DNA of 64,000 bases from Leptonemataceae bacterium (lineage in GTDB: Bacteria; Spirochaetota; Leptospiria; Leptospirales; Leptonemataceae): positions 128,001-192,000 of the forward strand of contig OZ245742.1 of the NCBI GenBank assembly GCA_965227295.1. Direction: 5' to 3'. Each line of letters starts with the position of its first letter. Position 1 is the stretch's first letter. The notes below the pieces were generated by a model. The model was not told the origin of the DNA. It searched no databases and was given only the letters and a program-made list of their open reading frames with translations. Positions 4,049-57,596 of this stretch are shown piece after piece. The translations under genes and the position numbers were made by a program.

Positions 4049-7000
4049 TTATCTCGGGAACCCCATTTCGTCCAGAAACGCGTTGATGCTGATGACGTTA
4101 CCACTTTTTCCTGGTTCGAACCCGGCTGCCATCTCCAGAGGGTCGCTAAGAATAAATTTCCTTTGCTTCTCGTCGTAGAATCCCTGAAGATCTTGAACCG
4201 TCAAACCTTCTTTATCAAACGAATCTCGAAGATCTTTCAGACTTTCCAGGAATTTCTCTCTGGCCTCGGGGGTGGGTAGCTTCGCACTATCCTCAAAAAA
4301 TTCCTTCAAACTATGTTTACTGAATTTAAGGTGTGTAGCCGGATCGACGTAGTCCATAACATATCCATAGCAGGTTTTTGCAGGGATACTCGTCGGGCAT
4401 GGAGTCGATCTCGCGACGGCCTCAAAGTTAACGACTTCTATGTTTTTCATCCCCTCCACATGATTACGAAGTTTCTTGAGATTCGCTATTTCCTCGCCGA
4501 TCAGCCGTAGCGCGTCGTCTTCTGCCAGATACAGTGGATTCTTGACCACGCCGAGAACTTTGCCCGGTTGCCCTTCAATCTTATAGACGTTCTTATAATG
4601 GCCATTGCCCTGCCATCCGGCATCGGAAACAGTACCCCGAAGTTTCTTGAGGGTGATATTTATTCCGCTGGCGAGACATCGGATACATCCAGAACTACTA
4701 CTGCTATTCTGATTATGCACCAACCACGCCGCGTCCCCCGCGAAGTAGTTGTGATCCCCTGCGACCTCGATGTTGTAGATCGGCTCACTTCGTTCCAGTT
4801 GCCGCGCCTTGATGGACTGAATCGCGGCAAGTTCACCGTCGATGGGCCGCAGGCGATCGCCGACCGTAAGGTCTTTCGCGGCCACCCACACGCCGCGTTC
4901 TTCCATCCAGAACGGGTGGTTATCCGTAACGGTGAGCGTATCTTCGCCGACACGGATCTCGTACCAAACGAGCGTAATGTCGCGGAAGACGTGCGTAACC
5001 TTCTGCTCACGCGGGGAGCCGGTGGCGGTGTCATAAGCGATGACGCTGTCGCCGACTTCCAGGTCGTCAATCTTGCGCTGCCCGTCCGGCGTTAAGATCG
5101 GCGTACCGGAAATTAAGCAACTCGAACAGGACTTGCACGGCAACACGCCGATCTTATCCAGTTTCGCCCGGCCTTTCTCGACGATCTTGCCGGCGACCGC
5201 GCCCACGCCTTTCGCGGCGGCGCCTTCGAGATAGTTCCCGATGCGCGTGCCGCTGGCCATACTCCAGGCACCCATGACGGCGGTGAACGGATCGCCCTCG
5301 CGTGTGCCGGTAACCAAATCGGCGACGCCGACGAAGCGGCCGAGCACCTGCCCGATCGCCGGGTTCAGATTGATCAACGTGCCCAGGATCGGATCGCCGC
5401 CGAGGTCGGAGGTCGACTTCATGAACGAAAAGAATTTCTCGGAATCCAGCGGATCATTCAGGAAGTTCGTAAGTTCATCGCGAAACTCGCGGACACGCTC
5501 GGCCAGTTCACCCGGTGCATCGGTAATGGCCTTCAGGATCGACCGGCCGACTTCCACCGCGTACTCAAGGTATTCATCAACGAGACCTTGTTCCCGCTCG
5601 CTCTGCCTGGAATTCTCGTAACCGGCAAGACGATCGTCCACGGCGATGTTTTCTTCCGCTTCCGCCTTGAGAGCTTCCCGCAATTGTCGCTGCAACGCGA
5701 TGCGCTCGGTTTGCATCGTCTGAAAGTGCTGTTGATATTTCAGGATGTTGCGGCCGACGGCGGACTCGTGTAGAAAATCCGTAACTACGGCGTCGAATTC
5801 CCTCGGTTTTCCGTTATCCCCGTTGATGGACGCTTCCACGCGCCAGGTAAACAGCGTATCGCTGAGGCCCGCGTCATTGAGCAATCGCTCATAATCCTCG
5901 AGCGCAGTATCCTGAATTTCATCTTTCGAGAGAAGGCAACCTACCTTTGCCCGGCACAGCTCCGCGGCGAGATCCTCCCTGGCGTCGCGCACGTATTCCA
6001 GAAGCGCGGGCTCGGGTTCCCGGCCTTCTTGCCTGGCCCTGGCGATATCCCTTTCTTTTTTCTGAATAAGATCTACGAAAGAACCGAACGGCATTACACC
6101 GCCGCTCAGGTAGCGGTCGGTGTGCTCTTCGCTGTAAGCAACATCCTGGATGTATTTGTAGAACTCCGGCTCGTACGTATCCTTACCCGGAGACACTTGA
6201 TTGGACTGACTCGCGCCCGCCGCCCGATAGATATCGAAGTGCGCAATGCCGACCTCGCTTTCATCGAAGATGCGATCATAACAGGCCATCTGCGCGAGCA
6301 GAGCCTCCGATCCCGCACCGGACTGAGACCGGCATTCCTGCATCACACGTTCGATGTTTGCAAGATTGTCCGGCGTAACCTCGTAAGTTTCGCGCAGTTG
6401 CTGTTTGTAATTTTCCGATCCGCGTTCCGTAACCGGGCTACCGCCGCCGGCTACTTCACCGCCTTCCGGTGGTTCCACGACGATGTCGCCGGGATTGTAG
6501 CCGCCGTCAGTAGCGCCGCCGTCGGAATCGCCGTTACCAAACCAATCATCCCAAACACCGGCCACGTCGTCCGGCACGCTACCGAACGGCTCATCCCCGA
6601 ACGGGTCCAGGTCCACGTGATCGCCGGGATTCTTGAACAGATCTTCCAGTTCGTCGATCTGCTTCCCCAAATCTCCGAGCTGCCGGAACTCGTCGGCTCG
6701 CTGCTCCAGATCTTCCGCGACCTTATCCAGGTACGGACTCGACAACCCGTCCCGATCGTTATAATCGAACAGGTCCTCTTTCTTTCCGGACAGGTTTGCG
6801 CCCCAGCCGTCTTTCGAATCATAACCGAACGAAAGATCGCCGACCTTTTGCTGAAAACCACCGGACCAGCCGTCCTGCGCATCGTAACCGGCAGTATAGC
6901 CGGCGCCGTCGAAGCTCGCGGACAAACCATTCGTCTCATCCCAGCGAATCTTACCGTCGCCGGTAAGAAGATCGTGTACACCTTCGCCGCCCGTGGAGAA

Positions 7001-10000
7001 ATCCATCTGGGCACCGAAGCCGGCGCGTTCATTGTACGTGAGCGCACCGTTCACATTGCCGACGTCGTTCTCACCTTCGAACGTAAGCGCGCCGGTGAGG
7101 CCGGCATTCTCATTCCAGCCGAGCCCTAACTGTCCCGTGCCGACACCACCGGCGTCGAGGCCGTAGCCCAGGTTCACCCCGAACCCCGTCTCATCATTAT
7201 AACTCAGCCCGACTTTCACACCGCCGCTGGAATAACCGGCGTTGATCGAATTGCCACCGCGCTCGCTGACGTTAAAACCGATGCTCAGTCCGTCGCCCTG
7301 GCCGAGTCGACCGTACGCCCCCGCGCCGTTCTTATCGCTGTAACTGATGCCGACGCTGCCGTAATCACCGCCGACGCCGATGCTCGCGCCGAAGCCGTCC
7401 GCGTGCGTATACGAAACACTCGCATCAATGCCGACGAGCTGCGTCGCCATCAACGCCGTGTCGGCCATGCGCGCCACCGAGCCGAGTTCACCGCCTTCGT
7501 AGTAACCCTTCTGTGCCTGATAGCCGTACCACAGACCGGGATTGTTCGTCATCATGGACGCGCTGAAGGCGGTCGCATCCATCAACATGGGATTGTCGTA
7601 AAACGTATCGGCGAGCGGTTGGGCGATGCCCGGGCCGAACATATCGTTCGAAGCCGCACCGACAAGGCCGCCCATCGCCGCGCCGGCCAGCATGCCGATG
7701 GGACCGAGGGCCAGGCCGGCCATGGCGCCGAGGCCGCCGCCCATGGTCATGGACGCCATGGAGTTCGCGAGTTTACCCGTGGGACCGTTGCGCGCCGCCT
7801 TCGCGGCCATCTTCTTCTTAAGTTCACCTGTAAGTAAGCTACCGAATCCTTTGATGCCGGTAATGCGATCGATCTCGCTGCCCACCACCTGCCAGGCGTA
7901 ACCCTGCATCGCTTCTTCGACACTCGCGCCACCGAGCAACGCCGACACGAAACCCGCGGGAATGCCGGTCATCGTTTCCCAGTGCGCGGCGATATCGCCC
8001 ATGATCTGATTCTTCGCGTAATCAATGAAGGCGTCGCCGGCGCTCATGCCCCCGGCCATGGAAGTCATGAGCGACTTCAACATCGAAAACAGTTGCGCCT
8101 GATCTTGCTTCGCCTGGGACGAGAGCTTTTCGCCGAGTTGTTTCGAAGCGTGCGCCGTATTCATGCGCGCCTGCGCCGCGCTGAGCCAGTTCGCGGCGCC
8201 GTCGTAGAAAGCCTGCTTCACGGCCTCGCGTTCCGCCTGCACGGCGCCGAAGTCCCACTGTTCAAAAAGATCCCCGCCGGAAACGAGTTTCAGCGCTTCC
8301 GGCGGGGCGATGCGTACGATCTGCTCTCGCTGCACGGAGTCGTAGCCCGTGGTGCTCGTCAGGTCGCCGCCGTTCCAGGCGACCTGTCCGGTATCCACGC
8401 TGCGGTGCGCCACGACCGTGCCGTCGTCTAAAATCTTCACAGAAAAGTTCATGCGCGCCTGGCGTTCGAGGCGCTGTTGCATCTCCTCGTCGGTTTCCAG
8501 GCGCGTCGCCGAGGCGTTCTCCCAACCCGCCGGACGCAGCAACACCGGCACGTCCTCGTACGGATTGTACTCCACCTCCTGGCGCTCGTTCTGCACGTAG
8601 TCGCGTGACAGTATGGAATAAGCTTGATCGATCAACTGATCGCGCAGCTGTTCGGCTTCGTCGGCGACGGTGCGCGCGTAGGTGAAATTCAAGAGGCCGT
8701 TCAGTGAAGTATTCAGAGAGCCGGCCGCATCCTTGAGCAGACTCATGTCCGGCAGATTCGAACCGGGCTCGGTTGCCAGGGAATCGGCGTGTTCGCGCAG
8801 GCCGGTTGCGTCGCTGCTAATTTTCACTCGCTGAACATTAGCGGATTGCGCGGCGGTGACGAGTTGCGCCAGCTCCTGCGGCAGGCCCGCGTCCGAATCC
8901 TCGAGCGCCAGGGCCTTCGCCGCGCGGCGATCTTCGACATCGTCCCAGCGCGCCGAAGCATGCAAGAAATCCCGGCGTGTATCCTCGAACCAGGCGTCCC
9001 GCTGCGCCGTGATTTCGCTGCGACGCTGCGCATATTCCGCCGTCGCCTGAGAACGTACAGCGTCGGCCTCGGCCTGCCAGGCGGAATAATTGGCCGCGTA
9101 AGAACTGCTCTGCGCTTCCCAGGTTTGCAGCGCGGGCAGCAAATCATCCTGCCACTGCGTGATGACCGGATTCAGATCGTCGACGTACCCCTGCCAGGTG
9201 TCGGCGTTCGCCCGGGCGTTGTTGTCCGTGAGAACGTATGTGACCTCGAACTGAATGAACTGCTCCGGAACGAGATAGTACGAGACCGGATACGACGGAT
9301 CGCCGCACGGATCCAGGCGATTGTAACGAGTGATGCCGAAACAGCCGAACACCGTATGCATGAATGCGCTGTAGCGCTGGTCTCGCGTTTCGCCGATCTG
9401 GCGAAAGTAGATACCGGCGTCGGAGTACGAAAAGACGTTCGTCCCCGCATCGCTGGAGAGCGGCGGGTATGAGGGAGACCAACCGGCCGCGTAAGTACTG
9501 CTGATGGCAATGTCCAGGTGATCGCCGTAACCGCCCAACGAACGCAAGAAATCCAGCAACGGTTGCCGGTTGCCTTTCAGGTCCTCGACGATCGTATACG
9601 CTTCCTGGTACTCCCAGGGCATCACGTTCGGATCGCCCGCGGCCTTGTAGTACGACTGCGCGGCGTCCACGTTCACCCGATCGGCCCAGACCTGGCTCGT
9701 CGCCTCGGCCTCGGTGCGCCGGGTTTCCATGTAGCTCAGAATATTCGCGGCCACGGCGGACAGCGGATCGCCGTCGGCCAGGGCGCCGCGGACGTCACCG
9801 ATCAATTGCGCTAAGTCCTGCCCGGCGGCATTTAAGGTCGAGCCGTCCACGTCGCAATGATTGTCGGAGTCGCAGCTTTCCTCGTGAAACAGACCGCTGC
9901 TGTTCAGAAAAACTTCCATCTGATCCACCGTCGCCGCGATGGAATTGCGGACGTCCTGTTCGAGCTGCTGCATCACGCTCAGGTTTTCTTCGAACAGAGC

Positions 10001-10684
10001 TGCCTGACGTTCCAGTTCGGCCAGGGTGGATTGATAGTCCGCGTCGAGGGCGTTCAGTGCGTCGGCGAATTCGCCCAGACCGGCGCTCGCATCCGCCCGA
10101 AAGCGTTCTTCCCAGGCCCGACGCAGTTCTATTAACTCATCTTCCGTAAGACTTAGCGAGGTTTCGTCTTGAGCGCGGCGTTCTTCGCGCTCCGCCTCCG
10201 TAAGCGCGGCCTGCGCATCGTCACCGGCGCTTTGCTCTTGTTGCGCGGCCAGATCGTTCAGAAAGGCGGCGCGCTCCGCGGCGAAGTAAGCGTCGGCTTC
10301 CAGTTCCCAGGCGGCGAAGGCGCTGCCCTTTTGGACGTCCAGTTCCGCGCGCAGATAGTCGCGATAGGCGTCCACGTCGTGCACGGCATCCGAGGCACTG
10401 ACGCTCGCCAGGTAACCGTCAATCTCGGCGTCGACGGCGGCTTCCCACTCCGCCGCGAGGACGATGCGCCCTTCCCGGACAATCGCCTCCCAATCCCTGA
10501 TCGAAGAACTGACGGCGGCCCGGCCGCCCAGGCTGGAAAGGCCGCCGGGGTCGGTCGGCGGCGGTGTCAGTTCCGGAAGCGGCTGGGCCGGCAAACGCGA
10601 GAACGGGGCAACGGTCCAGGCGAGTGTCGTAACGACCAGCACCGCGGCCATCCATCGTTTGTGAAGAGTCCGGTTCTTGTTCAT
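4049..10684 (-). CDS. Large secreted polymorphic toxin (TIGR04388-like N-terminus, Hint domain, C-terminal kinase-like domain)
   Basis: 2211 aa; signal peptide, coiled-coil region, glycine zipper, Gly/aromatic beta repeats, Hint domain CLISGT...LVHN, divergent tip of about 220 aa. Confidence 0.85.
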   Translation of the reverse strand: MNKNRTLHKRWMAAVLVVTTLAWTVAPFSRLPAQPLPELTPPPTDPGGLSSLGGRAAVSSSIRDWEAIVREGRIVLAAEWEAAVDAEIDGYLASVSASDAVHDVDAYRDYLRAELDVQKGSAFAAWELEADAYFAAERAAFLNDLAAQQEQSAGDDAQAALTEAEREERRAQDETSLSLTEDELIELRRAWEERFRADASAGLGEFADALNALDADYQSTLAELERQAALFEENLSVMQQLEQDVRNSIAATVDQMEVFLNSSGLFHEESCDSDNHCDVDGSTLNAAGQDLAQLIGDVRGALADGDPLSAVAANILSYMETRRTEAEATSQVWADRVNVDAAQSYYKAAGDPNVMPWEYQEAYTIVEDLKGNRQPLLDFLRSLGGYGDHLDIAISSTYAAGWSPSYPPLSSDAGTNVFSYSDAGIYFRQIGETRDQRYSAFMHTVFGCFGITRYNRLDPCGDPSYPVSYYLVPEQFIQFEVTYVLTDNNARANADTWQGYVDDLNPVITQWQDDLLPALQTWEAQSSSYAANYSAWQAEADAVRSQATAEYAQRRSEITAQRDAWFEDTRRDFLHASARWDDVEDRRAAKALALEDSDAGLPQELAQLVTAAQSANVQRVKISSDATGLREHADSLATEPGSNLPDMSLLKDAAGSLNTSLNGLLNFTYARTVADEAEQLRDQLIDQAYSILSRDYVQNERQEVEYNPYEDVPVLLRPAGWENASATRLETDEEMQQRLERQARMNFSVKILDDGTVVAHRSVDTGQVAWNGGDLTSTTGYDSVQREQIVRIAPPEALKLVSGGDLFEQWDFGAVQAEREAVKQAFYDGAANWLSAAQARMNTAHASKQLGEKLSSQAKQDQAQLFSMLKSLMTSMAGGMSAGDAFIDYAKNQIMGDIAAHWETMTGIPAGFVSALLGGASVEEAMQGYAWQVVGSEIDRITGIKGFGSLLTGELKKKMAAKAARNGPTGKLANSMASMTMGGGLGAMAGLALGPIGMLAGAAMGGLVGAASNDMFGPGIAQPLADTFYDNPMLMDATAFSASMMTNNPGLWYGYQAQKGYYEGGELGSVARMADTALMATQLVGIDASVSYTHADGFGASIGVGGDYGSVGISYSDKNGAGAYGRLGQGDGLSIGFNVSERGGNSINAGYSSGGVKVGLSYNDETGFGVNLGYGLDAGGVGTGQLGLGWNENAGLTGALTFEGENDVGNVNGALTYNERAGFGAQMDFSTGGEGVHDLLTGDGKIRWDETNGLSASFDGAGYTAGYDAQDGWSGGFQQKVGDLSFGYDSKDGWGANLSGKKEDLFDYNDRDGLSSPYLDKVAEDLEQRADEFRQLGDLGKQIDELEDLFKNPGDHVDLDPFGDEPFGSVPDDVAGVWDDWFGNGDSDGGATDGGYNPGDIVVEPPEGGEVAGGGSPVTERGSENYKQQLRETYEVTPDNLANIERVMQECRSQSGAGSEALLAQMACYDRIFDESEVGIAHFDIYRAAGASQSNQVSPGKDTYEPEFYKYIQDVAYSEEHTDRYLSGGVMPFGSFVDLIQKKERDIARARQEGREPEPALLEYVRDAREDLAAELCRAKVGCLLSKDEIQDTALEDYERLLNDAGLSDTLFTWRVEASINGDNGKPREFDAVVTDFLHESAVGRNILKYQQHFQTMQTERIALQRQLREALKAEAEENIAVDDRLAGYENSRQSEREQGLVDEYLEYAVEVGRSILKAITDAPGELAERVREFRDELTNFLNDPLDSEKFFSFMKSTSDLGGDPILGTLINLNPAIGQVLGRFVGVADLVTGTREGDPFTAVMGAWSMASGTRIGNYLEGAAAKGVGAVAGKIVEKGRAKLDKIGVLPCKSCSSCLISGTPILTPDGQRKIDDLEVGDSVIAYDTATGSPREQKVTHVFRDITLVWYEIRVGEDTLTVTDNHPFWMEERGVWVAAKDLTVGDRLRPIDGELAAIQSIKARQLERSEPIYNIEVAGDHNYFAGDAAWLVHNQNSSSSSGCIRCLASGINITLKKLRGTVSDAGWQGNGHYKNVYKIEGQPGKVLGVVKNPLYLAEDDALRLIGEEIANLKKLRNHVEGMKNIEVVNFEAVARSTPCPTSIPAKTCYGYVMDYVDPATHLKFSKHSLKEFFEDSAKLPTPEAREKFLESLKDLRDSFDKEGLTVQDLQGFYDEKQRKFILSDPLEMAAGFEPGKSGNVISINAFLDEMGFPR
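4712..5119 (-). other. Pretoxin Hint (BIL/intein-like) autoprocessing domain, 136 aa
   Basis: Block A CLISGTPILTPDG, block B LTVTDNHPFW, block F/G IYNIEVAGDHNYFAG...WLVHN; the next residue is Gln. Confidence 0.92.
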
Positions 10685-36804: not shown

Positions 36805-37229
36805 AGACCCTTCTAACGATTCTTGAACAAAGGAAACGCACTATGTCACTTACTGTAGAAGATCCCGTCGCATTTGTATACTCCCGCTCCCGGGGACGTC
36901 TGACGCTGCCCCCGGGCCGATTCGAACGGTGTTTCCGGCCGGCCTTTCGATCGTCCGGTACCGGAGTCATACACTCGGACATCGTTCCGCTGGGAACGGC
37001 CTATGCCTTGCTTGAACTGCGCGGTGATGACACGTCCATGCGGCTGCAAGTCGAGGGCGGGGGCAAAAACGCCGAGCGGATTAGTATTTCGCTTTACACA
37101 AACGGGGATCTGTTAGAAAAATCGTTTCTCGGTGCCCGACGCAGTTGGGACCTCGGTTCCTTCCAGCCAGGCTCCTACCGCCTCGAATGCAATAACGTCA
37201 CCGCATTATCTTTTCAGATTCAGGAATGA
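36801..37229 (+). CDS. Hypothetical protein coupled to the sigma factor and STAS genes
   Basis: 4-nt overlaps with both neighbours; beta-rich C-terminus. Confidence 0.6.
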   Translation: MKTLLTILEQRKRTMSLTVEDPVAFVYSRSRGRLTLPPGRFERCFRPAFRSSGTGVIHSDIVPLGTAYALLELRGDDTSMRLQVEGGGKNAERISISLYTNGDLLEKSFLGARRSWDLGSFQPGSYRLECNNVTALSFQIQE

Positions 37230-37567
37230 AAGTGAAAGTCGTAACGAAAGGCGAAGTCAACATAGTAAGGATTGAAGGCGCCATCAAGTCCGGCGACGAA
37301 TACAATCTCGCCGAAAAAATGGAGAAGTACATCAAGCCCGGCCAGGCTCCCAAGTTCATCATCGACATGAAGAAAGTCCCCTTCGTCAACTCGGCGGCTC
37401 TCGGGGTCTTTCTGAACATCTACAAACACGTCGACAATCTCAAAGGCCGCATGGTCTTCGCCGGCCTCAATGCCGACGTCGAGAACCTCATGGAAATTAC
37501 GAAGCTCTCCTCGATCTTCGAAATCTTCCGCACGGTGGACGAAGCTCTGGAAAGCTACGATTTCTAA
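37226..37567 (+). CDS. STAS-domain anti-sigma-factor antagonist
   Basis: IIDMKKVPFVNSAALGV, ITKLSSIFEIF. Confidence 0.92.
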   Translation: MKVKVVTKGEVNIVRIEGAIKSGDEYNLAEKMEKYIKPGQAPKFIIDMKKVPFVNSAALGVFLNIYKHVDNLKGRMVFAGLNADVENLMEITKLSSIFEIFRTVDEALESYDF

Positions 37568-37591
37568 GCAGATCGAGTACTTCTTACGGCT

Positions 37592-37626
37592 AAAAACCGG
37601 CGTTCCGAATGGGCGCCGGTTTTTTT
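37592..37626. terminator. Bidirectional intrinsic terminator
   Basis: AAAAACCGGCGTTC-cgaat-GGGCGCCGGTTTTTTT between convergent genes. Confidence 0.85.
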
Positions 37627-37636
37627 ATTGCTCTCG

Positions 37637-39598
37637 TTAATAATGTAAACTCCCTTTGTAGTACAACGACCGGCTGAGCCGGGTGGCCCGCGGGTTGTCC
37701 GGGGCGATTTCCAGAACCTCTTCCAGAACAGCGCGGGCCTCGTAGTAGTCGCTGTTGAGCCGGTAGAGTTCGGCGAGGTTTAACAGATTCATAATGTGAC
37801 CGCGGTCCCGCAGGCGGCAACGCTCCCCGAAGTCGATGCCGCGCGACAACGGAACGTCGCCGTCGAGCAGATACGTGGCGCGCACGCCGAAGGCCGCGAT
37901 GTACAAATACTCCGTCTCCGACGGCACCAGCCAGGCCAGGGTTTCGTAGACCCGCGAAGAGTCTTTGATGCGCCGGTTCGCGCGATAGATGGTCGCCAGG
38001 TACGGATAGATTTCCGGATCGTCGTCCTTGAAGGCCAGGGCCTTTTCGAAGGCCTCGCAGGCGTCCGCGTATTTGCCGGCCTGGAAGTACTTCTTGCCCT
38101 TTTGTTTCAGATGAATGTATCCCGGCGGCGGCATGTGATAGTCGTCGGCCTCCTCCTGGCGATACGCCGCCCGCAGGATGCTGACGTCGTCGGCCAGCGT
38201 GCCCGTTTCCAGCGTTCGATCCAATATGCCGTTCAGATCGCCGCGCGCATCTTCCACCAGGCGCAGAAACAGCGCCTCGTCCTCGTTCATGGTGTCTTCT
38301 TCGCCGCTCTCACCGGGAGCGATGAGGATGTCCTGGCGCCCGTCGGAACCGATCAACAACACGTCCCGGGCCGCAAGTTGCAGGACATTGATTTGAAAGG
38401 GTTTGTTTAATCCGGCCATGCCCTGCATGCCGAGCTTCGGCATGATGTACTCATCGTCGCGGGCAAAGCGCGCCCGGCCGTCGCGATACAACACGACGCG
38501 CGGATGCTCGGCGTTCACATAGTAGGCCACCCCGCGCTGTTCTTCGATGAGCCCGCAGACGACGGTGGCCGTCATGCTGCCGTCGAAGGATCGAAAGACG
38601 TCGTGCAATTGTTGAAAGCAATCCTGCAACCAGCGTTCCGGCGAACGAGCGGCGGCGGCGGCGCTGTGCTCCGAACGACTGAGAATGGACTTGAAAACCG
38701 TGCCGAGGACCAGAGCTCCGCCGGCCCCCTGCATGGACTTGCCCATGGCGTCACCGTTGATGAAGGCCGTGTAGTCACGGTTCTGCAAACGAATGCGCTG
38801 GGCCGCGGAGAGATCGCCGCCGAGTTCCACATCCCAGCGTCGAAAGCGGAAGGCCTTCATCTGTCGGGTAACAACCTCGATCTTTAAGTGCGGGCTCGCC
38901 ACGTCGCTACCGGTCAGCGGTTCAATGAGGCGGCTCGTGAGAAAGTAGTCCCCGTCCTGTCGACTCTTCAGGATGTTCAACTGGCGCACGGTGGCGGCGA
39001 GTATGCGCGTCTTGCGATTGCTTTCGATGGTTTGCCGCAGCAGACGATCCCGATAGAAGACCGCCGCCACACTGAATACGATCACACCGATCAACGACGG
39101 CACGATAGCCTGGGATTCGTACTCGCCGGCAATGAACAGGGCGCACGACAGTGCAAAGATGACCGCCAGATTCAACAGGGCGACGCGCGGCTGCATGTGA
39201 ACGAGCATCGCAAACGAGAAGATCAACAGCACCAGGACGTACGGTGTGCCGGTGGCGGGGTTCAGAAACAGCAGGACGAGCTGACAGACGATGAGGGAGT
39301 ATCCCGCCACGAGAAAGGCCGGGAGAACCCAGCGACGCAGGCCGCGCCGGGAAAGACCGACGGCAACAAACAGTACGAAACAAACGGCGAAGACGGTCAG
39401 ATCGCCGAGGACGAAGTAGTTCCGAATCTGCGCGCCGGCGCTCGCCCCGACCAAAAAGTAATCCAGCACGGCAAAGGCCGGCATGATCAAGCAGAGCATG
39501 GTCACCACGAAGGGCATGAGTCGCAGGTTCTGGCGCCGGTACTCCACCGCCAGTTCCCGTTGCGCCCGCGAGCGTCGGCCTGCGAACAAACTTTTCAT
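37637..39598 (-). CDS. Membrane SpoIIE/PP2C phosphatase with C-terminal TPR
   Basis: N-terminal TM bundle; QDGDYFLTS, ELGGD, NGDAMGKSMQGAGGA, GSDGRQD, DDVSIL; TPR tail. Confidence 0.9.
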   Translation of the reverse strand: MKSLFAGRRSRAQRELAVEYRRQNLRLMPFVVTMLCLIMPAFAVLDYFLVGASAGAQIRNYFVLGDLTVFAVCFVLFVAVGLSRRGLRRWVLPAFLVAGYSLIVCQLVLLFLNPATGTPYVLVLLIFSFAMLVHMQPRVALLNLAVIFALSCALFIAGEYESQAIVPSLIGVIVFSVAAVFYRDRLLRQTIESNRKTRILAATVRQLNILKSRQDGDYFLTSRLIEPLTGSDVASPHLKIEVVTRQMKAFRFRRWDVELGGDLSAAQRIRLQNRDYTAFINGDAMGKSMQGAGGALVLGTVFKSILSRSEHSAAAAARSPERWLQDCFQQLHDVFRSFDGSMTATVVCGLIEEQRGVAYYVNAEHPRVVLYRDGRARFARDDEYIMPKLGMQGMAGLNKPFQINVLQLAARDVLLIGSDGRQDILIAPGESGEEDTMNEDEALFLRLVEDARGDLNGILDRTLETGTLADDVSILRAAYRQEEADDYHMPPPGYIHLKQKGKKYFQAGKYADACEAFEKALAFKDDDPEIYPYLATIYRANRRIKDSSRVYETLAWLVPSETEYLYIAAFGVRATYLLDGDVPLSRGIDFGERCRLRDRGHIMNLLNLAELYRLNSDYYEARAVLEEVLEIAPDNPRATRLSRSLYYKGSLHY

Positions 39599-46869: not shown

Positions 46870-47745
46870 GTCTCCTGGCCGCTCTCGAATGTGCACATCT
46901 CTCTGCGGAAACGGCACGCGCACGCCGTACTCGCGCATCTTCGCGTGAATCGCAAAGTTCAAATCGCTCACCAGGCGACCTTTGCGGTGCAGCCGTTCCT
47001 TCGTAAACACGCGCAGATCAAACTTTAAGCCGCTGTCACCGAACTCCAGGAAGCGCACCACCGGCTCCGGAAAGTCCAGGACGTCGTCGTGCTCCGCCGC
47101 GGCCTCGAGCAACGCGCGCTGTACATTGTCCAGATCGCTCTCGTAATCGACGAGCAGCGGAATGCGAAAGCGAATGCGTTGTTCGGTGTGGGACCAGTTG
47201 ATCACGTTCTCCGAAACGAAACGCGAGTTGGGAATGATGATGGCGATGTCGTCGTTCGTGAGGACCGTCGTACTGCGCAGGCCGATGTTCAAAACGGTGC
47301 CCTCGACGCCGCCGACTTCGACGCGGTCGCCGATCTTGATCGGCCGCTCGAACAGAATGATCACCCCGCTTACGAAGTTATCGGCGATGTTCTGCAATCC
47401 GAAGCCCAGGCCGACGCCCACGGCACCGGCGATAACGGTGAGCGTCGTCAGATCAATGCCGGTGCTCTGCACGATGACCAGCAGGCCGATCAGAATCACC
47501 ACGTAACGCACGATGCTGCCGATGGCCTGGCGCACGCCGATGTCGACTTTACTCTTCGCGAACAGGCGGTCCGTGATGAGCGCGGTCAGCCGTTTGGTAA
47601 TGACGAACAACAGGATCACGGCGACCAGGAAGTACGTTACTGTCCACACGGTGATGGTCTTACTTTCGAGTTCCACGAGGGGGATGGCCAGCCACTCCGG
47701 CACCGCGCCGAGCATATCCCACATCCATCGCATCATCTCACTCAA
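46861..47745 (-). CDS. MscS-family mechanosensitive channel
   Basis: GLGFGLQNIADNFVSG, ERPIKIGD, IIPNS, PFPQRD. Confidence 0.93.
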   Translation of the reverse strand: MSEMMRWMWDMLGAVPEWLAIPLVELESKTITVWTVTYFLVAVILLFVITKRLTALITDRLFAKSKVDIGVRQAIGSIVRYVVILIGLLVIVQSTGIDLTTLTVIAGAVGVGLGFGLQNIADNFVSGVIILFERPIKIGDRVEVGGVEGTVLNIGLRSTTVLTNDDIAIIIPNSRFVSENVINWSHTEQRIRFRIPLLVDYESDLDNVQRALLEAAAEHDDVLDFPEPVVRFLEFGDSGLKFDLRVFTKERLHRKGRLVSDLNFAIHAKMREYGVRVPFPQRDVHIRERPGDSP

Positions 47746-47777
47746 ATCATTCTGCTCCCGTACAACGCGACCGAACG

Positions 47778-47806
47778 TTGCCCGCGGCCGCCGCCGTGTT
47801 TATACT
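47778..47806 (+). promoter_or_regulatory. Sigma70-like promoter of the aldehyde dehydrogenase gene
   Basis: TTGCCC-N17-TATACT; an additional TATAAT at 47819-47824. Confidence 0.5.
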
Positions 47807-47866
47807 GTTGCGTGTAAGTATAATAAAAGAAAACGTGGATTCCTTCAACGACTCCCGGACCAATCG

Positions 47867-49252
47867 ATGAACACCATCGCAGCAAAACCCTATCGATCCA
47901 TCAACCCCGCCACTGAAGAAGTGATCTCCGGGTACCCGCACATCGGCGCGGCCGAAGCCGCCGCGGCCGTAGAACGCGGTCACGCGGCCTTTGTGAAGTG
48001 GCGCGAAACAACTTTCGAACATCGTGCACAAATATTGCGCAAGGCGGCGGCCCTTCTAAAAGAAGACAAACGCAAGTTCGCCGAACTCATGGCCCGGGAG
48101 ATGGGCAAACCCCTGGCCGAGGGCGAAGGGGAAATCGAAAAATGCGCCTGGGCCTGCGAGCACTACGCCGAACACGCGGCACAGTATCTCTCCGAAGAAG
48201 ACGTGCAAACCGGGGCGGCGCATGCCTTCGTCAGTTATCAGCCCATCGGCCTCGTACTTGCGGTCATGCCCTGGAACTTTCCGTTCTGGCAGGTCTTTCG
48301 TTTCAGTGCGCCGGCGCTTATGGCGGGCAACGGCGCCATCCTCAAACACGCCGAAAACGTGCCCGGCTGCGCCCTGGCCGTAGAAGACGTGTTCATGCGG
48401 GCCGGTCTGCCGCAGCACTTATTTCAGAATCTCTTCGTCGACCATGCAGTCACGGCGAAGCTCATCGAACACAAACTTGTGCGCGCCGTAACCTTAACCG
48501 GCAGCGTTCGCGCCGGTCGCGCGGTGGCCGCGAAGGCGGGCGAACAGTTGAAGAAGAGCGTCCTGGAACTCGGCGGCAGCGACGCCTACGTCGTTCTGGG
48601 AGACGCGGACCTCGACCTGGCAGCACAGGTCTGCGCCGCCTCACGCATGATCAACGGCGGCCAGTCCTGCGTGGCGGCCAAGCGCTTCATCGTGGTCGAC
48701 GCCGTCTACGACGCATTTCTGAAAAAGTTTCTCGAAAGATTGCGCACTGTGAAGATGGGCGATCCGTTCACCGACGGTGTAACCCTGGGCCCCCAGGCCC
48801 GCGCGGATTTGCGCGACGATTTGCACGATCAGGTGCGACGCAGTGTGGACGCCGGAGCCGAAGTCGTACTCGGCGGCGAAATTCCGGACGGCCCCGGTTT
48901 TTATTATCCGCCGACGGTACTCACGAACGTCGCGCCCGGCAGCCCGGCGTACTCCGAGGAACTCTTCGGCCCGGTGGCGGCGGTGATTCGCGCGAAGGAC
49001 ACCGACGACGCCCTGCGCATCGCCAACGACAGCGACTACGGCCTCGGCGGCGCCATCTTCACGGCGGACGTCGAGCGCGGGGAACGCCTGGCCGCGGAAC
49101 GTTTCGACAGCGGCAACGTCGGCGTCAACGGCCAGGTACGCTCGGACCCGCGTCTGCCTTTCGGCGGCGTCAAGGACAGCGGCTACGGCCGGGAGCTCTC
49201 GCACTTCGGCATCCGCGAATTCGTCAACATCAAAACGGTGTTGCGCTCGTAA
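47867..49252 (+). CDS. NAD(P)-dependent succinate-semialdehyde dehydrogenase (Sad/GabD1-like)
   Basis: MPWNFPFWQ, LTGS, LELGGSD, NGGQSC, EELFGPV, PFGGVKDSGYGRE. Confidence 0.92.
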   Translation: MNTIAAKPYRSINPATEEVISGYPHIGAAEAAAAVERGHAAFVKWRETTFEHRAQILRKAAALLKEDKRKFAELMAREMGKPLAEGEGEIEKCAWACEHYAEHAAQYLSEEDVQTGAAHAFVSYQPIGLVLAVMPWNFPFWQVFRFSAPALMAGNGAILKHAENVPGCALAVEDVFMRAGLPQHLFQNLFVDHAVTAKLIEHKLVRAVTLTGSVRAGRAVAAKAGEQLKKSVLELGGSDAYVVLGDADLDLAAQVCAASRMINGGQSCVAAKRFIVVDAVYDAFLKKFLERLRTVKMGDPFTDGVTLGPQARADLRDDLHDQVRRSVDAGAEVVLGGEIPDGPGFYYPPTVLTNVAPGSPAYSEELFGPVAAVIRAKDTDDALRIANDSDYGLGGAIFTADVERGERLAAERFDSGNVGVNGQVRSDPRLPFGGVKDSGYGRELSHFGIREFVNIKTVLRS

Positions 49253-51187: not shown

Positions 51188-51346
51188 ATGAATCCGAATC
51201 ATGCCGAAGAACTGACCAACCTTGCACCGAACGCGGACATTGCTCCGGACGCTCTGGCGCGCGTGGTCGACGAAGTGCGCGCTGAAGCGCAAATCAGCCC
51301 CGACCGCTACCTGAACGAAACGATCGTTCCGGAAGGCGGCGAGTAA
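51188..51346 (+). CDS. Pup/UBact-like small protein modifier (52 aa, C-terminal GGE)
   Basis: GAGG RBS; MNPNHAEELTNLAPNADIAPDALARVVDEVRAEAQISPDRYLNETIVPEGGE*; directly upstream of a PafA-family ligase. Confidence 0.8.
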   Translation: MNPNHAEELTNLAPNADIAPDALARVVDEVRAEAQISPDRYLNETIVPEGGE

Positions 51347-51357
51347 GTCGCTTCTCC

Positions 51358-53235
51358 GTGGTCGCATCCCGGCTGTTCGGCCAGGAGACGGAGTATGCCA
51401 TCCGTTTCTCGGCTCCGGCCGGGTCTGAGTCCGCGGAGCGCCCCGATCATTCCCTCATCTTCCACGCCTTTCGTGCGGCCGTAAAAAAGTTCGTCCGCAT
51501 CCGCCCCGGCGAGTGGTCGTTCTTCAAAGAATCCTTCTTCGTCGAGAACGGCGGCGCCTTTAACTACGAATCCCAGCCCTATGCCCCCGAGGCCGGCCTC
51601 ATCGAGGGGGCCACACCGGAATGCCGTTCGCCCCTGGAGTGCCTCGTCTACCAGCGCGCCCAGGAGCAACTGCTCCTCCGGGCCATCCCCGAGGCCGAGG
51701 CCTATTTACGACGCAAGGGTTTTCCGGGTTCCCTCGGCCTCCTGAAAAATTGCCGCGACGCCGAAGGCCACATCTACGGCGCCCAGGAAAACTACGGAAC
51801 GGACATTGCCTCGGGCCTGCGTCTCTGGCTGTATCGGATGGGGCTCGTGTTGTGCCTGCCGCTGCTGTTGTTCTGGTGGGTCCTGTATATGGGCTGCCTT
51901 ACGCTCGTCGTTACGCTGTCGCTGTTGGTACAGTTCTGTCTCTGGCTCGGCTATAGTTTGCTGCACGGCTTCTTAAGTTTTCCCGCCTGGATGTTACGCA
52001 GCGCATTCTTGCAAAAACGCGTAGACGATCTTACGGCCTTCAAGGATCGGCTGGCCGCGCGCTGGTCCATGTTCTCCGAGAGTACCGAGTTTCATCGGCT
52101 CATCGCCCGCCTGGAGTATACGATCTTCTTTCCGCCGACGCTGATTATCCTCTGGCCGTACACGCTGCTGCTGCGTCTGTGCGCCTTCGTACCCCAGCGC
52201 CGCCAGTTGACGGCGTTTTTCGCGTCCCGGGTAATCTTCACCGGCGCCGGCACGTTGCTGGAAGCCGGAGCAGATGCCGGTGGCGGCGTATTTGCCCTTT
52301 CGGAAAAGGGCACCGCCGTAAAACGCATGAATCGAATCACCATCGGTCCCGAGGACCGGCCGCTCTTCGACAACGGCAATCTGCACAAGGCCTTCATGCT
52401 GGCCGGACTGAGCACGCTGGTGTTGCGACCGGCTTCGTTCCTGGGACTCTTCACGCGCCGGTCACGTTTTCAAATCGGTATGGCCGACTCCAACCGCGCC
52501 CAGTTTGCCGAGTATTTGAAGTTCGGGACGAGCCTGTTGGTCCTGGACGCCTTCGAGGCCGGCTACTTAAAAGATGCGCCGCGCCTGCGCCGGCCGGTAC
52601 GCTCCCTGCGTGAGCTCGTCCACGATTGCAGCCTGAGCACGAGCGTGCCCGTACATCGCCTTACAACGACGGACGGCGAACGCAAACGCAACGCAAACGC
52701 CCTGGAGCTCCAGCGCTGGTACCTGGAACGCGTGCGGCAGTATCTACACGACCGCGACGCCGACGAGGGCGCGGCGTCCATTACACCGGAGCGAGTGGAG
52801 GAACGCGAGATTTTCCGGCTATGGTCGGAATGCCTGGATCTCTTAACTGACGATCCGGGAAAGTTAATCGGCCGACTGGATTGGGTTACGAAACGTTATC
52901 TCATCGAAGCCGCCGGACGCGACCTGGCCTTCTCCGCGCAGAAGAAGATCGACCTGGGCTACCACGAACTCGGCGGCGCCTATTTCGATCGCCTGGAAGC
53001 CGAGGGCATTGCACCGAAGCTCGCCCCGGACGATGCCGTGAGCACGGCCGTATTCCAGCCCTCGTCGCCGGAGCGGGTCCAGCTCCGCTCGCGTCTGATT
53101 CGGGACAGCAGTTACGGCGGGCGACGCATTACCGTATCCTGGAACCGTGTACGCATCGGCGACTGGTGGGACCGTAAGATCATCTCTCTTGATGTTTACC
53201 GCAATCAAAAGAACAAGGGCGACGGGCATCCATGA
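51358..53235 (+). CDS. PafA/Dop-family (PafA2) ligase with transmembrane insertion
   Basis: RLFGQETEY, ENGG, EGATPEC, KNCRDAEGHIYGAQENY, RVIFTGAG, DSNRAQFAEYLKFGT, LDWVTK, IDLGYHEL, collinear with PafA motifs. Confidence 0.9.
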   Translation: MVASRLFGQETEYAIRFSAPAGSESAERPDHSLIFHAFRAAVKKFVRIRPGEWSFFKESFFVENGGAFNYESQPYAPEAGLIEGATPECRSPLECLVYQRAQEQLLLRAIPEAEAYLRRKGFPGSLGLLKNCRDAEGHIYGAQENYGTDIASGLRLWLYRMGLVLCLPLLLFWWVLYMGCLTLVVTLSLLVQFCLWLGYSLLHGFLSFPAWMLRSAFLQKRVDDLTAFKDRLAARWSMFSESTEFHRLIARLEYTIFFPPTLIILWPYTLLLRLCAFVPQRRQLTAFFASRVIFTGAGTLLEAGADAGGGVFALSEKGTAVKRMNRITIGPEDRPLFDNGNLHKAFMLAGLSTLVLRPASFLGLFTRRSRFQIGMADSNRAQFAEYLKFGTSLLVLDAFEAGYLKDAPRLRRPVRSLRELVHDCSLSTSVPVHRLTTTDGERKRNANALELQRWYLERVRQYLHDRDADEGAASITPERVEEREIFRLWSECLDLLTDDPGKLIGRLDWVTKRYLIEAAGRDLAFSAQKKIDLGYHELGGAYFDRLEAEGIAPKLAPDDAVSTAVFQPSSPERVQLRSRLIRDSSYGGRRITVSWNRVRIGDWWDRKIISLDVYRNQKNKGDGHP

Positions 53236-53609
53236 GATTGAGCCGAACGGCGTTTGTAATCTTTCTGGGCCTGTGTTGCGGCGGCTGTTACTCCGCATCC
53301 TTCCGTCCGGCGGACGATTATCCGAACCTGCGACGGATAGACGTGCAACCAGGCGACGTCGTGCTCGTCTACGAGCGCCCGGAACGATCTTTCGTAATTC
53401 TCGGTGGTATGGAAGTTCGTGACGTCGACAGTTTGCGCGATCCGGATTTTCAGGAGTTCGTCCGGGCGGAAGCGGCCCGCCGCGGCAGTACGGGTGCCTG
53501 GGTTCTCAGCAACAGCGCGCGCACCGCGGCCCATGCGACGTTCGGTGAGTGGTTCAACCCGGGCGGCGGCATCGGCATCGTACGCGTGTTGTTGTTTCAC
53601 TTTGAGTAG
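53232..53609 (+). CDS. Small lipoprotein translationally coupled to the ligase
   Basis: ATGA overlap; signal MRLSRTAFVIFLGLCCGGC. Confidence 0.65.
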   Translation: MRLSRTAFVIFLGLCCGGCYSASFRPADDYPNLRRIDVQPGDVVLVYERPERSFVILGGMEVRDVDSLRDPDFQEFVRAEAARRGSTGAWVLSNSARTAAHATFGEWFNPGGGIGIVRVLLFHFE

Positions 53610-55580: not shown

Positions 55581-57596
55581 ATGACGGTCCCCCGCGATGC
55601 GCTGAACGATCATCGCCTGTTCTTTACGGCGCAACCGTTGTTCGAGAACATCGCGCCGCGCAGTGCGGCCTTCCGCAAGTTTCTCGATCAGGTGGAGCTC
55701 GTGCTCTACGCCCGCTCCGAGGAAATCTACGAACCAGGCACGCAATCGGATTATCTCTACCTGGTCCGGGACGGCGAGGTGCACATCGTTTATGGCCAGG
55801 GAAACGGACCGGCACGCACCATCGGCATTCATGGTCGGGGCAGCATCTTCGGCGAGGTCAGCTTTCTCACGCGCGAACCGCATTCATCCTTCGCCGTCGC
55901 CACCCTGGACTCCCACATCTATCGCATCCCCGGGGAAGCCTTCGTCGAACTCATGACCGCCGAGGCCGGCGTCGGACGGGTTATGACTTCCATGTTGTCG
56001 CGCCGATTGCGGCGTTCGCTGTACGAAGAGAGCCACGCGCATCCGGCTTCGATTCATGCGTTGTTTTACCCGGAAGATCCGGAGCGCGGCAGTGAGGTCT
56101 GCGCGGCGCTGGGCGAAGCGTTGGTCCTGGAAAACCCCGGGCCGGTGTTGATCCTTACGTTGAACCCGGCCTCAATGTTCGCCCATCATGAAAACGTAAA
56201 CGGTCTTTCACGCATCTTAGAAAAGTGGCCGGCCGTTCGCATCGAAGAGATGCTCGGTTACATGGATCATCCGGCCGGCTTCGATCTGCTCGTCGCCAAC
56301 GAGGTCTACGGCATGGAGCTGAACCTCGATCGTGTGGTGCAGCTCATGCCGGATTTCCTCGGACGCCTGCGCAAGTACTACGCCACCATCCTGGTGGACG
56401 CCGGCGGTCTCGTCGAGAACCCGGTGCTCTCCCGCGTGCTCTCACAGAGCGACTACGTAATGTTCGTGCGAAACCCCCACGGGGAAAACGATTCCCGCGC
56501 GGGCCGACGCTTTCGTGAAGTCATCGCCTACTGCACGGAGCTAATGGATGATTTTTTCGAACGCGCCATCATTATCTCCGACGAATGCGAGGAGCGCCAC
56601 GGCGGCGCACCGGCGGACTGGCGCGGCTGGAATCCGAACTCGGCCCTGTACAAACGGCACATGCGATTGTCGTGCGTGAGCGGGGGGCCGGCCCATCGCA
56701 TCGAAGAACGCGCATTTCAGATCGGCATCAATCGAATCGCGCGCAAGCTCTCGGGAACCTCGCGCGGCCTCGTCCTCGGCGGCGGCGGGGCGCGGGCCTT
56801 CGCTCACATCGGCGTTATGGAAGTTCTCGACCGCGAAGGCATCGACTTCGACGCGGTGACCGGAACTTCCATGGGTGCGGTCATCGGCTGCGGCTACGCG
56901 ATGGGCCGGGACGCCTCGGAGCTGGCGTACCTCGTGAAACAGATCATCCCGGACTCCGACGCGATCCTCGATAAACGTTTGCCGCTCGTAAGTTTCTTTC
57001 GCGGCAAGAAACTGAACAAGGCGATTCTTTCCGCCTTCGGCAACACGCGCTTCGAAGACCTGGAGATTCCGTTCTACTGCAACGCCGCCGATCTCAACAC
57101 GGCCCAGAGCGTCATCTTCGAACAGGGCTTCGTCTCCACGGCCATTCGCGCTTCGGTCAGTCTGCCCGGCATCTTTCCACCGATGAAACTCGGGCCCTAC
57201 GACCTGGTGGACGGCGGCGTCCTGAATAATCTGCCGGGGGACATCTTACGCGATAAGGGCTTCAACCGCATCATCGGTGTGAACGTTACCCCGCTCGAGG
57301 ACCACCGTTCCTCGGACACCCAGGTGGAAGATCGCCCCGGCGGTCTGTTTCAAAAGATCAAAGACTATTTCAGCCTGCCCCCGATACTGAAAATCATTTA
57401 CCGTTCCACCACGATCCAGGGCATCGAGTTACTCAAGCTGCGTCTGGACGACTTCGATTACCTGTTTCACCCGGACATTGCGCCGTGGGACATCTTCGAT
57501 TTTCACCGGCGCGACGAGATCATCGAAGCCGGTCGCCGCGCGGCTTTGGATAGCCTTCAGGAAATCAAGGACACGTTGTACCGACCGCGGATGTAG
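55581..57596 (+). CDS. cNMP-binding patatin-like phospholipase (NTE/RssA family)
   Basis: cNMP domain [10 protein letters not shown]; patatin [20 protein letters not shown]. Confidence 0.92.

Follow-up and report, generated by a model that had tools for sequence, protein, structure and literature searches.

The locus described here lies in a 64,000-nucleotide (nt) stretch of DNA, hereafter the window, from a Leptonemataceae bacterium (contig OZ245742.1, positions 128,001 to 192,000), and its core is a pair of adjacent genes on the forward strand. The second of the pair is an open reading frame (ORF) at 51358..53235 that begins with GTG and encodes a 625-amino-acid (aa) member of the Pup ligase family. 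The first, which ends 12 nt upstream of the ligase gene, encodes a small protein with a Gly-Gly-Glu (GGE) C-terminus. GC content at third codon positions (GC3) of the ligase ORF is 0.76, similar to that of the neighbouring genes. An earlier note on this DNA had described the ligase as PafA-like, with a hydrophobic insertion and altered active-site residues; it overlooked the adjacent GGE gene, the single long hairpin that the insertion is predicted to form, and a 2008 paper that had drawn the same inference.

The ligase matches the Pfam Pup_ligase family (PF03136) at 216.4 bits against a gathering cut-off of 25, over profile positions 1-440 of 441. It falls short of both NCBIfam equivalogs, scoring 155.4 bits against a cut-off of 551.3 for PafA (TIGR03686) and 131.8 bits against 492.3 for Dop (TIGR03688), while nine control PafA sequences score 527-774 on TIGR03686. 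Among solved structures, the best sequence matches are Dop 4b0r (E 5e-27) and PafA 4b0t (E 1.3e-22), and the alignments to both stop directly after an ENY motif and restart about 130 residues further on. An AlphaFold2 model, for which an alignment of 110 sequences was the input, has a mean predicted local distance difference test score (pLDDT) of 95.2 and a predicted template modelling score (pTM) of 0.93, and a Foldseek search with this model returned Dop 7oxy (E 1.8e-26) and PafA 4bjr (E 1.9e-25). The template modelling score (TM-score), normalised to the target, was 0.79-0.81 for the best Dop chains (0.79 for 7oxy) and 0.74-0.75 for PafA 4bjr. The core of the ligase as modelled is a PafA/Dop fold, which bears out the description of the protein as a PafA-like ligase.

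A protein search with the ligase returned 586 relatives, and the best 120 of these are all Pup_ligase proteins of 500-690 aa; the named ones among these 120 carry the label 'PafA2 family'. The conservation counts given below come from an alignment of 110 of these 120. In a maximum-likelihood tree, rooted at the midpoint for drawing only, the membrane-type ligases form their own clade with a support of 100/100, and PafA and Dop are separate from each other. The branch between the membrane-type clade and PafA plus Dop amounts to 1.59 + 0.99 changes per site. By this sequence phylogeny the ligase belongs to a third clade, distinct from PafA and from Dop. The clade spans Myxococcota, Planctomycetota, Acidobacteriota, Verrucomicrobiota, Bdellovibrionota and Leptospirales. 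In a collection with a single genome per species, covering about 185,000 species, tblastn confirmed 332 relatives within the candidate stretches that were scanned. When 1.84 billion representatives were searched exhaustively, the number of matching proteins was 1702 at E <= 1e-3, 718 at E <= 1e-10 and 275 at E <= 1e-30, the last set being 275 clusters at 50% identity.

The region upstream of the ligase was compared in 71 related loci from named public genomes and in the window. An equivalent small ORF was found in 62 loci with a strict pattern and in 6 more with a looser one, and the remaining 4 loci (L018, L036, L039, L056) are contigs that start inside the ligase gene. A small ORF is thus present ahead of the ligase in 68/68 loci with upstream DNA, and every one of these ORFs terminates in GGE, never in GGQ. 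Conservation in the small-ORF alignment is concentrated in the last ~35 residues, with G50, G51 and E52 the same in every sequence and D33, Y41, V47 and P48 conserved at 90% or more. An Atlas search with the small ORF found unnamed clusters of 38-51 aa only.

In the genomes searched, this gene pair appears to occur without the 20S proteasome and Mpa of canonical pupylation. A single Pup_ligase gene is present in the genome of the window, which is one contig of 5.94 Mb at 93.6% completeness; the only proteasome-family match there is HslV, and no Mpa was detected, the best score being 144 bits against a cut-off of 505. One Pup_ligase family member each was likewise found in five further carriers, from Leptospirales, Plesiocystis, Limisphaerales, Pirellulaceae and Marinacidobacterales. 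No 20S beta subunit or Mpa scored above the cut-off in 6/6 genomes (the window's and the five carriers), and Dop was not searched for directly. Among the window's genome and 40 relatives the ligase gene is present in 9/41, namely in 8/24 others of the same family and 0/16 of a sister family in the same order in addition to the window's own. The cassette is a patchy, accessory trait.

The active site was compared in a joint MAFFT alignment of 12 members of the membrane-type clade with 17 PafA and Dop sequences. The latter were ORFs extracted from actinobacterial loci that had been fetched by a DNA pattern derived from YGCHENY; the identities of 9 PafA and 8 Dop were confirmed by NCBIfam, and two more sequences, which were atypical, were left out of the comparison. 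In this alignment AQENY occupies the columns of CHENY, RFQI those of RLHV and FNYE those of LYLD/YYVD, the same three replacements that the earlier note had read from the window. The ligase has Glu71, Gln143 and Gln372 where PafA and Dop have the catalytic Asp, the His of HENY and the His of RLHV. In a table of Hecht et al. 2020 the LYLD/YYVD Asp is named as the catalytic Asp, and the RLHV His corresponds to Dop H241, which, according to Cui et al. 2021, hydrogen-bonds the catalytic phosphate. Far from being unconserved, a possibility that the earlier note had raised against its own proposal, E71, Q143 and Q372 are each present in 110/110 clade members. Much of the remaining active site is kept as well: E83, E88, N131, D134, E144 and R326 in all 110/110 members, R334, R370 and N379 in 109/110, D377 in 108/110, and E10 and E12 in 108/110 with 2 gaps.

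The substitutions are easier to place in the wider carboxylate-amine ligase superfamily. The motifs given for this superfamily in Iyer et al. 2008 are GhExE in strand 1, which is assigned there to the Mg/ATP site in its GxExE form, [HQ]x[NH] in strand 4, [QH]x4D in strand 6, and two conserved arginines around strand 5. The ligase conforms to all of these, with G8-Q-E10-T-E12, Q143-E-N145, Q372-IGMA-D377, R326 and R334, and the same source treats the Gln forms of the strand-4 and strand-6 motifs as catalytically competent variants. Loss of the TRDEPHA arginine was also considered as a feature of the ligase and was dropped, because it depends on the alignment (joint alignment versus RP-anchored reading) and because R326 and R334, invariant or nearly so, lie nearby.

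Directly after ENY, about 128 residues of the ligase are without a counterpart in 17/17 PafA/Dop sequences. The hydrophobic insert of about 130 aa that the earlier note had placed here was found as described, and both strings quoted for it fall within the translation of 51799-52197. A second insert of about 26 alignment columns follows the TRDEPHA position and is also absent from 17/17 PafA/Dop. The second hydrophobic segment of the earlier note, AFMLAGLSTLVLRPASFLGLF, is indeed present at residues 345-365, but it stands directly after the TRDEPHA-equivalent position and does not replace the TRDEPHA loop. In a similar way, the interval proposed for these features, 51800-52470, covers residues 148-371, but AQENY and FNYE lie just outside it. 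Insert 1 was found in 110/110 clade members with a length of 99-138 aa (median 113), and because this insert and the substitutions are kept across 110 members, they represent a conserved feature of the clade and not chance.

In a Kyte-Doolittle profile with a 19-residue window, the strongly apolar parts of insert 1 are residues ~156-210 (maximum 2.28) and ~255-279 (maximum 1.67), and these stretches of 55 and 25 residues are kept family-wide. The family-wide medians are 42 residues for the first uncharged run, 19 for the last, and 31 for the charged stretch between them (K+R 5, D+E 4). A third hydrophobic segment at residues 344-366 peaks at 1.52 and holds Arg357 and Pro358; judged from its sequence, this segment alone is not convincing as a membrane span.

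Mean-field coevolution was calculated for residues 121-400 from 237 family members (effective number 200). The top coupling in this region is G162-L271, at 3.27 compared with a 99.9th percentile of 1.14, and the couplings 155-278, 166-271, 201-232 and 195-245 share an anti-diagonal at i+j ~433, with z up to 4.5. Insert 1 is predicted to be one long antiparallel helical hairpin that turns near residue 216, both in the AlphaFold2 model and in the couplings, though it should be noted that the coevolution signal is not independent of AlphaFold, which draws on the same covariation. AlphaFold2 places the helices of insert 2 at 340-354 and 359-363, and the residues coupled to insert 2 (277, 265, 167 and 159) lie at the hairpin base, which is evidence that in the modelled structure the second insert buttresses the hairpin. 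A simpler hairpin of two transmembrane (TM) segments, TM1 and TM2, turning near residue 183 is suggested by the hydropathy profile and by a following segment rich in Arg/Lys. However, its coevolution signal is weak (anti-diagonal ~365, z ~2 for the mean and 0.7 for the top pairs), and this arrangement was neither adopted nor excluded.

Tethering of the catalytic core to the membrane through the conserved, very hydrophobic insert is the most likely reading of the sequence. This agrees with the proposal in the earlier note that the catalytic cradle is held at the membrane, although simple separate spans are not what the model and the coevolution draw. Three arrangements of the modelled hairpin are candidates: the proximal halves of the arms (156-180 and 255-279) could cross the membrane as two spans while the distal half projects past it, part of the hairpin could lie flat within the cytoplasmic leaflet, or the hairpin could be buried inside an oligomer.

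Table 1. Features of the proposed tag-ligase gene pair and of the encoded enzyme, in window coordinates
Feature	Position	Strand	Basis
Pup-like small protein, 52 aa, ATG start, GAGG 6 nt before, C-terminus ...VPEGGE	51188..51346	+	sequence; position
Pup_ligase-family enzyme, 625 aa	51358..53235	+	PF03136, 216 bits; own clade, 100/100
GxExE motif (G8, E10, E12), core strand 1, Mg/ATP site	51379..51393	+	invariant in joint alignment of membrane clade, PafA and Dop
Glu71 at catalytic-Asp position, part of FNYE (51559-51570)	51568..51570	+	joint alignment; 110/110
QENY (Q143-Y146), core strand 4, Gln for the HENY His; AQENY is 51781-51795	51784..51795	+	Q143 and E144, 110/110
Insert 1 (residues 148-280), hydrophobic helical hairpin, presumed membrane anchor	51799..52197	+	absent in 17/17 PafA/Dop; hydropathy; model; coevolution
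Outgoing arm, one unbroken predicted helix of 61 residues (153-213), apolar ~156-210	51814..51996	+	AlphaFold2; hydropathy
Return arm, distal part: predicted amphipathic charged helix 216-240	52003..52077	+	AlphaFold2; couplings 201-232, 201-228, 201-239
Return arm, proximal part: predicted helix 243-275, apolar from ~255, with prolines	52084..52182	+	AlphaFold2; hydropathy; couplings G162-L271, 155-278
Insert 2 (residues 340-366), predicted helix-turn-helix, moderately hydrophobic, between core strands 5 and 6	52375..52455	+	model; hydropathy; alignment
Core strand 6, R370-F-Q372-I-G-M-A-D377, Gln for the phosphate-contacting His	52465..52488	+	R370 109/110, Q372 110/110, D377 108/110
C-terminal helical domain common to PafA and Dop	52495..53157	+	best-aligned part versus both; 158 bits, profile positions 358-572

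Both the observation and its interpretation were already published in 2008, from sequence analysis. In their in silico study, Iyer, Burroughs and Aravind (Biol Direct 3:45) describe Pup ligases with a TM insert in Plesiocystis pacifica and Rhodopirellula baltica that are not linked to proteasome genes and have an adjacent Pup with a G[EQ] end, and propose that these ligases probably act on the cytoplasmic face of the membrane, pupylating membrane-associated proteins. The same text counts 4 TM segments in the insert and reports a linked membrane-protein gene. Single-copy homologs from Planctomycetes served as an outgroup in Hecht et al. 2020. A literature search, to which subscription journals were largely out of reach, found no later experimental work on membrane-bound Pup ligases; it returned the 2008 and 2020 papers and an essay by Cavalier-Smith, no paper that treats UBact together with Pup and PafA, and nothing on the subject in the 2025 'Pupdates' review.

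The ligase of the window clearly corresponds to this published clade. The Plesiocystis ligase (locus L063) is 41% identical to it, the insert follows core strand 4 directly, the adjacent small gene has a G[EQ] end, there is no link to proteasome genes, and both strand-4 and strand-6 motifs are in their Gln forms. There are also differences from the 2008 account. Instead of 4 TM segments, the insert here shows two apolar stretches (55 and 25 aa), three long helices in the AlphaFold2 model and one long hairpin by coevolution. The linkage to a membrane-protein gene was not reproduced in the 71 loci, where the tag gene is the only conserved neighbour. The organism itself belongs to an uncultured family in a Leptospirales-like order, outside the coverage of the 2008 study, so the window adds a clade member from a Leptospirales-related lineage. 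What is added beyond this is the GGE partner in all 68 loci that could show one, the fixed Glu/Gln/Gln set, the separation of the clade from both PafA and Dop, the lack of a 20S proteasome or Mpa match above cut-off in each of the six genomes searched, and the prediction of a long hairpin insert buttressed by insert 2.

On balance, and with moderate confidence, the ligase is taken to be the enzyme half of a two-gene, proteasome-independent tagging cassette, in which a membrane-held ligase joins a GGE tag to a membrane-near lysine. The 52-aa upstream protein would be the tag, and the 625-aa protein would be a carboxylate-amine ligase of the Pup ligase family that is anchored in the cytoplasmic membrane by the hairpin after core strand 4. 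ATP and Mg would be bound through GxExE, E83, E88, QEN and the R/Q/D motifs, the side-chain carboxylate of the terminal Glu of the tag would be phosphorylated with Glu71 filling the role of the catalytic Asp, and the activated tag would then be handed to a membrane-proximal amine, for which a lysine on a membrane or membrane-associated protein is the likeliest candidate. No deamidase would be needed in such a system because every copy of the tag already ends in Glu.

A number of results weigh against this proposal. The small ORF has no match to Pfam Pup (PF05639) at E <= 1 and none in NCBIfam, a genome-wide scan for Pup gave no match at the small ORF and its best matches lie elsewhere at E 0.2, and a PDB search with the small-ORF profile yielded no Pup chain at E <= 10. 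An hhalign comparison of the small-ORF alignment with 10 canonical Pups from Dop loci gave a weak match, with 32 columns in register to the C-terminus at E 8.6e-4 and a probability of 23.6%. Because the family models fail and the profile-profile match is weak, the small ORF is called Pup-like by architecture and position, and not by proven homology. The surroundings of the gene pair are of little help either: when 734 ORFs of at least 70 aa from the 72 loci were clustered by BLASTP, no family besides the ligase occurred in more than 7 loci, the recurrent neighbours by Pfam are unrelated housekeeping genes, and there is no conserved third gene that points to an acceptor or to a reader of the tag. 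Within the ligase, the chemistry cannot be simply assumed, because three active-site positions differ from every PafA and Dop compared (n=17), and whether the TRDEPHA Arg that binds phosphate is retained varies with the alignment, with variable residues or Gly340 in the matching column. Finally, three hydropathy segments do not give an even number of spans, and the hairpin drawn by AlphaFold2 and coevolution is about 90 angstrom long, of which a bilayer could hold only a part.

That last point bears directly on an unlikely alternative, in which the hydrophobic hairpin forms the interior of a homo-oligomer, soluble or peripheral, as enzymes with the glutamine-synthetase fold often assemble. An antiparallel hairpin with ~60 residues per arm exceeds a bilayer, in its distal half an apolar helix lies against an amphipathic, charged one as in helical bundles, and many members of the superfamily are dimeric or larger, according to Iyer et al. 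2008. However, the apolar run here is 55 residues long and abounds in Leu, Val, Phe, Trp and Cys, and uncharged runs across the family have a median of 42, as is typical of membrane segments. If the hairpin does hold the enzyme at the membrane, the acceptor in the same cassette might be a membrane lipid or a small-molecule amine, such as the head group of phosphatidylethanolamine (PE), with an outcome analogous to Atg8-PE, a reading that the earlier note had also put forward and that is unlikely. The direct fusion of the catalytic core to the hydrophobic hairpin is consistent with it, as are the predicted packing of the moderately hydrophobic insert 2 on the hairpin base near core strands 4-6, the lack of a conserved protein partner encoded nearby, and the fact that three invariant active-site changes separate the clade from the protein-lysine ligases. 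The superfamily relatives GCS2 and glutamine synthetase also use small amines, as stated in Iyer et al. 2008. On the other hand, His to Gln and Asp to Glu are conservative exchanges, and Gln is already permitted by the family motifs. A more speculative and improbable extension is a bacterial protein-lipidation system in which the terminal Glu of the tag is joined to an amine head group such as PE, so that the inner membrane becomes coated with disordered tag; a related option is that tagged membrane proteins are destined for an AAA protease of the membrane such as FtsH. If protein lipidation were true, the invariant Glu/Gln/Gln site and insert 2 would be adaptations to an acceptor presented by the bilayer.

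Other alternatives concern the reaction itself. The enzyme could be a Dop-like hydrolase or transferase that removes or exchanges the tag, or it could do both jobs as the only family member of the cell, although this is unlikely. Foldseek and sequence searches slightly favour Dop over PafA, the tree places the ligase equidistant from the two, each of the six genomes has one copy of the family, and PafA itself is able to transfer Pup between substrates, as reported in PMC5358908. Yet an enzyme that only removes tags requires a separate ligase, and none was found in the genomes searched; deamidation would be superfluous with 68/68 tags ending in Glu, and NCBIfam favours PafA over Dop (155 versus 132 bits). 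It is very improbable that the protein is a catalytically dead relative that serves in scaffolding or sensing only. Such a role would fit the replacement of three residues that are invariant in PafA and Dop, but the new residues are just as invariant and chemically resemble the ones they replace, 108-110 of 110 members keep the metal, ATP and arginine positions, and the GGE end of the tag does not vary.

The proposed membrane-held ligase can also be set beside the characterized members of its superfamily. With PafA of Actinomycetota (TIGR03686; 4b0t, 4bjr) it has in common the fold, the two-domain architecture, the GxExE, E/E, N..D, ENY and R..D..N motifs, and a gene position beside a small disordered-looking protein ending in GG[EQ]. 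It differs from PafA in the Glu for the catalytic Asp, the Gln for two His and the two inserts, in its place in a separate long-branch clade, and in a genome with no 20S proteasome or Mpa match above cut-off. The Dop depupylase/deamidase (TIGR03688; 4b0r, 5lrt, 7oxy) is the best structural and sequence match and has the same active-site scaffold, but H241 of Dop is a Gln in this ligase, a Dop-loop of the canonical type is absent from it, and the tags here end in Glu and hence offer no substrate for deamidation. GCS2/YbdK gamma-glutamyl-cysteine ligases (1r8g, 1tt4) share the carboxylate-amine ligase core and are distant Foldseek matches (E 9e-4 to 3e-3), whereas they have no C-terminal PafA/Dop domain, tag gene or hydrophobic insert. 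In the two closest relatives, L005 and L006, a further low-complexity stretch of ~30-70 residues follows the first strand of the ligases (P0007 and P0006), where Dop has its Dop-loop; this stretch is absent in the protein of the window.

Several other genes near the cassette were recorded. A 125-aa ORF at 53232-53609 (+), whose ATG overlaps the ligase stop (ATGA) and whose N-terminus resembles a lipoprotein signal, is 50% identical (E 4e-34) to an ORF just 3' of the ligase in a genome of the same genus (L005 7987-8421). It has no Pfam or NCBIfam match and is not kept beside the cassette in more distant carriers. In L005 (3719-5674) and L006 (3497-5449) a SpoIIE-phosphatase/TPR protein of ~650 aa is encoded directly 5' of the tag-ligase cassette. 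A CitMHS/TrkA-C transporter gene takes this place in the window, where a similar SpoIIE-phosphatase/TPR gene lies ~12 kilobases (kb) away at 37637-39598 (-), beside a STAS-domain gene (region 37226-39598). Two genes 3' of the ligase on the same strand, at 55581-57596 (+), a patatin-like phospholipase is fused to a cyclic-nucleotide-binding domain; it recurs in only 3 other loci (a cluster of 4) and hence does not belong to the cassette. The aldehyde dehydrogenase ORF at 47513-49252 (+) has ~120 N-terminal residues before its Pfam match, which begins at residue 125, and its true start is probably more downstream. Further away, an ORF of 2210 aa at 4049-10684 (-) has a pretoxin-HINT domain (PF07591, E 1e-13) near its C-terminus, in a polymorphic-toxin architecture, and adjoins MORN-repeat, DUF2937 and CsgG-like genes.

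Pupylation has been studied almost wholly as a proteasome route in Actinomycetota, and the clade described here, first noticed 18 years ago, is widespread elsewhere. It combines a Pup-like tag with a predicted membrane-bound ligase in cells in which, across the six genomes searched, no 20S proteasome or Mpa was found. Identifying the substrate and the reader of the tag would show what role such tagging has outside protein degradation.

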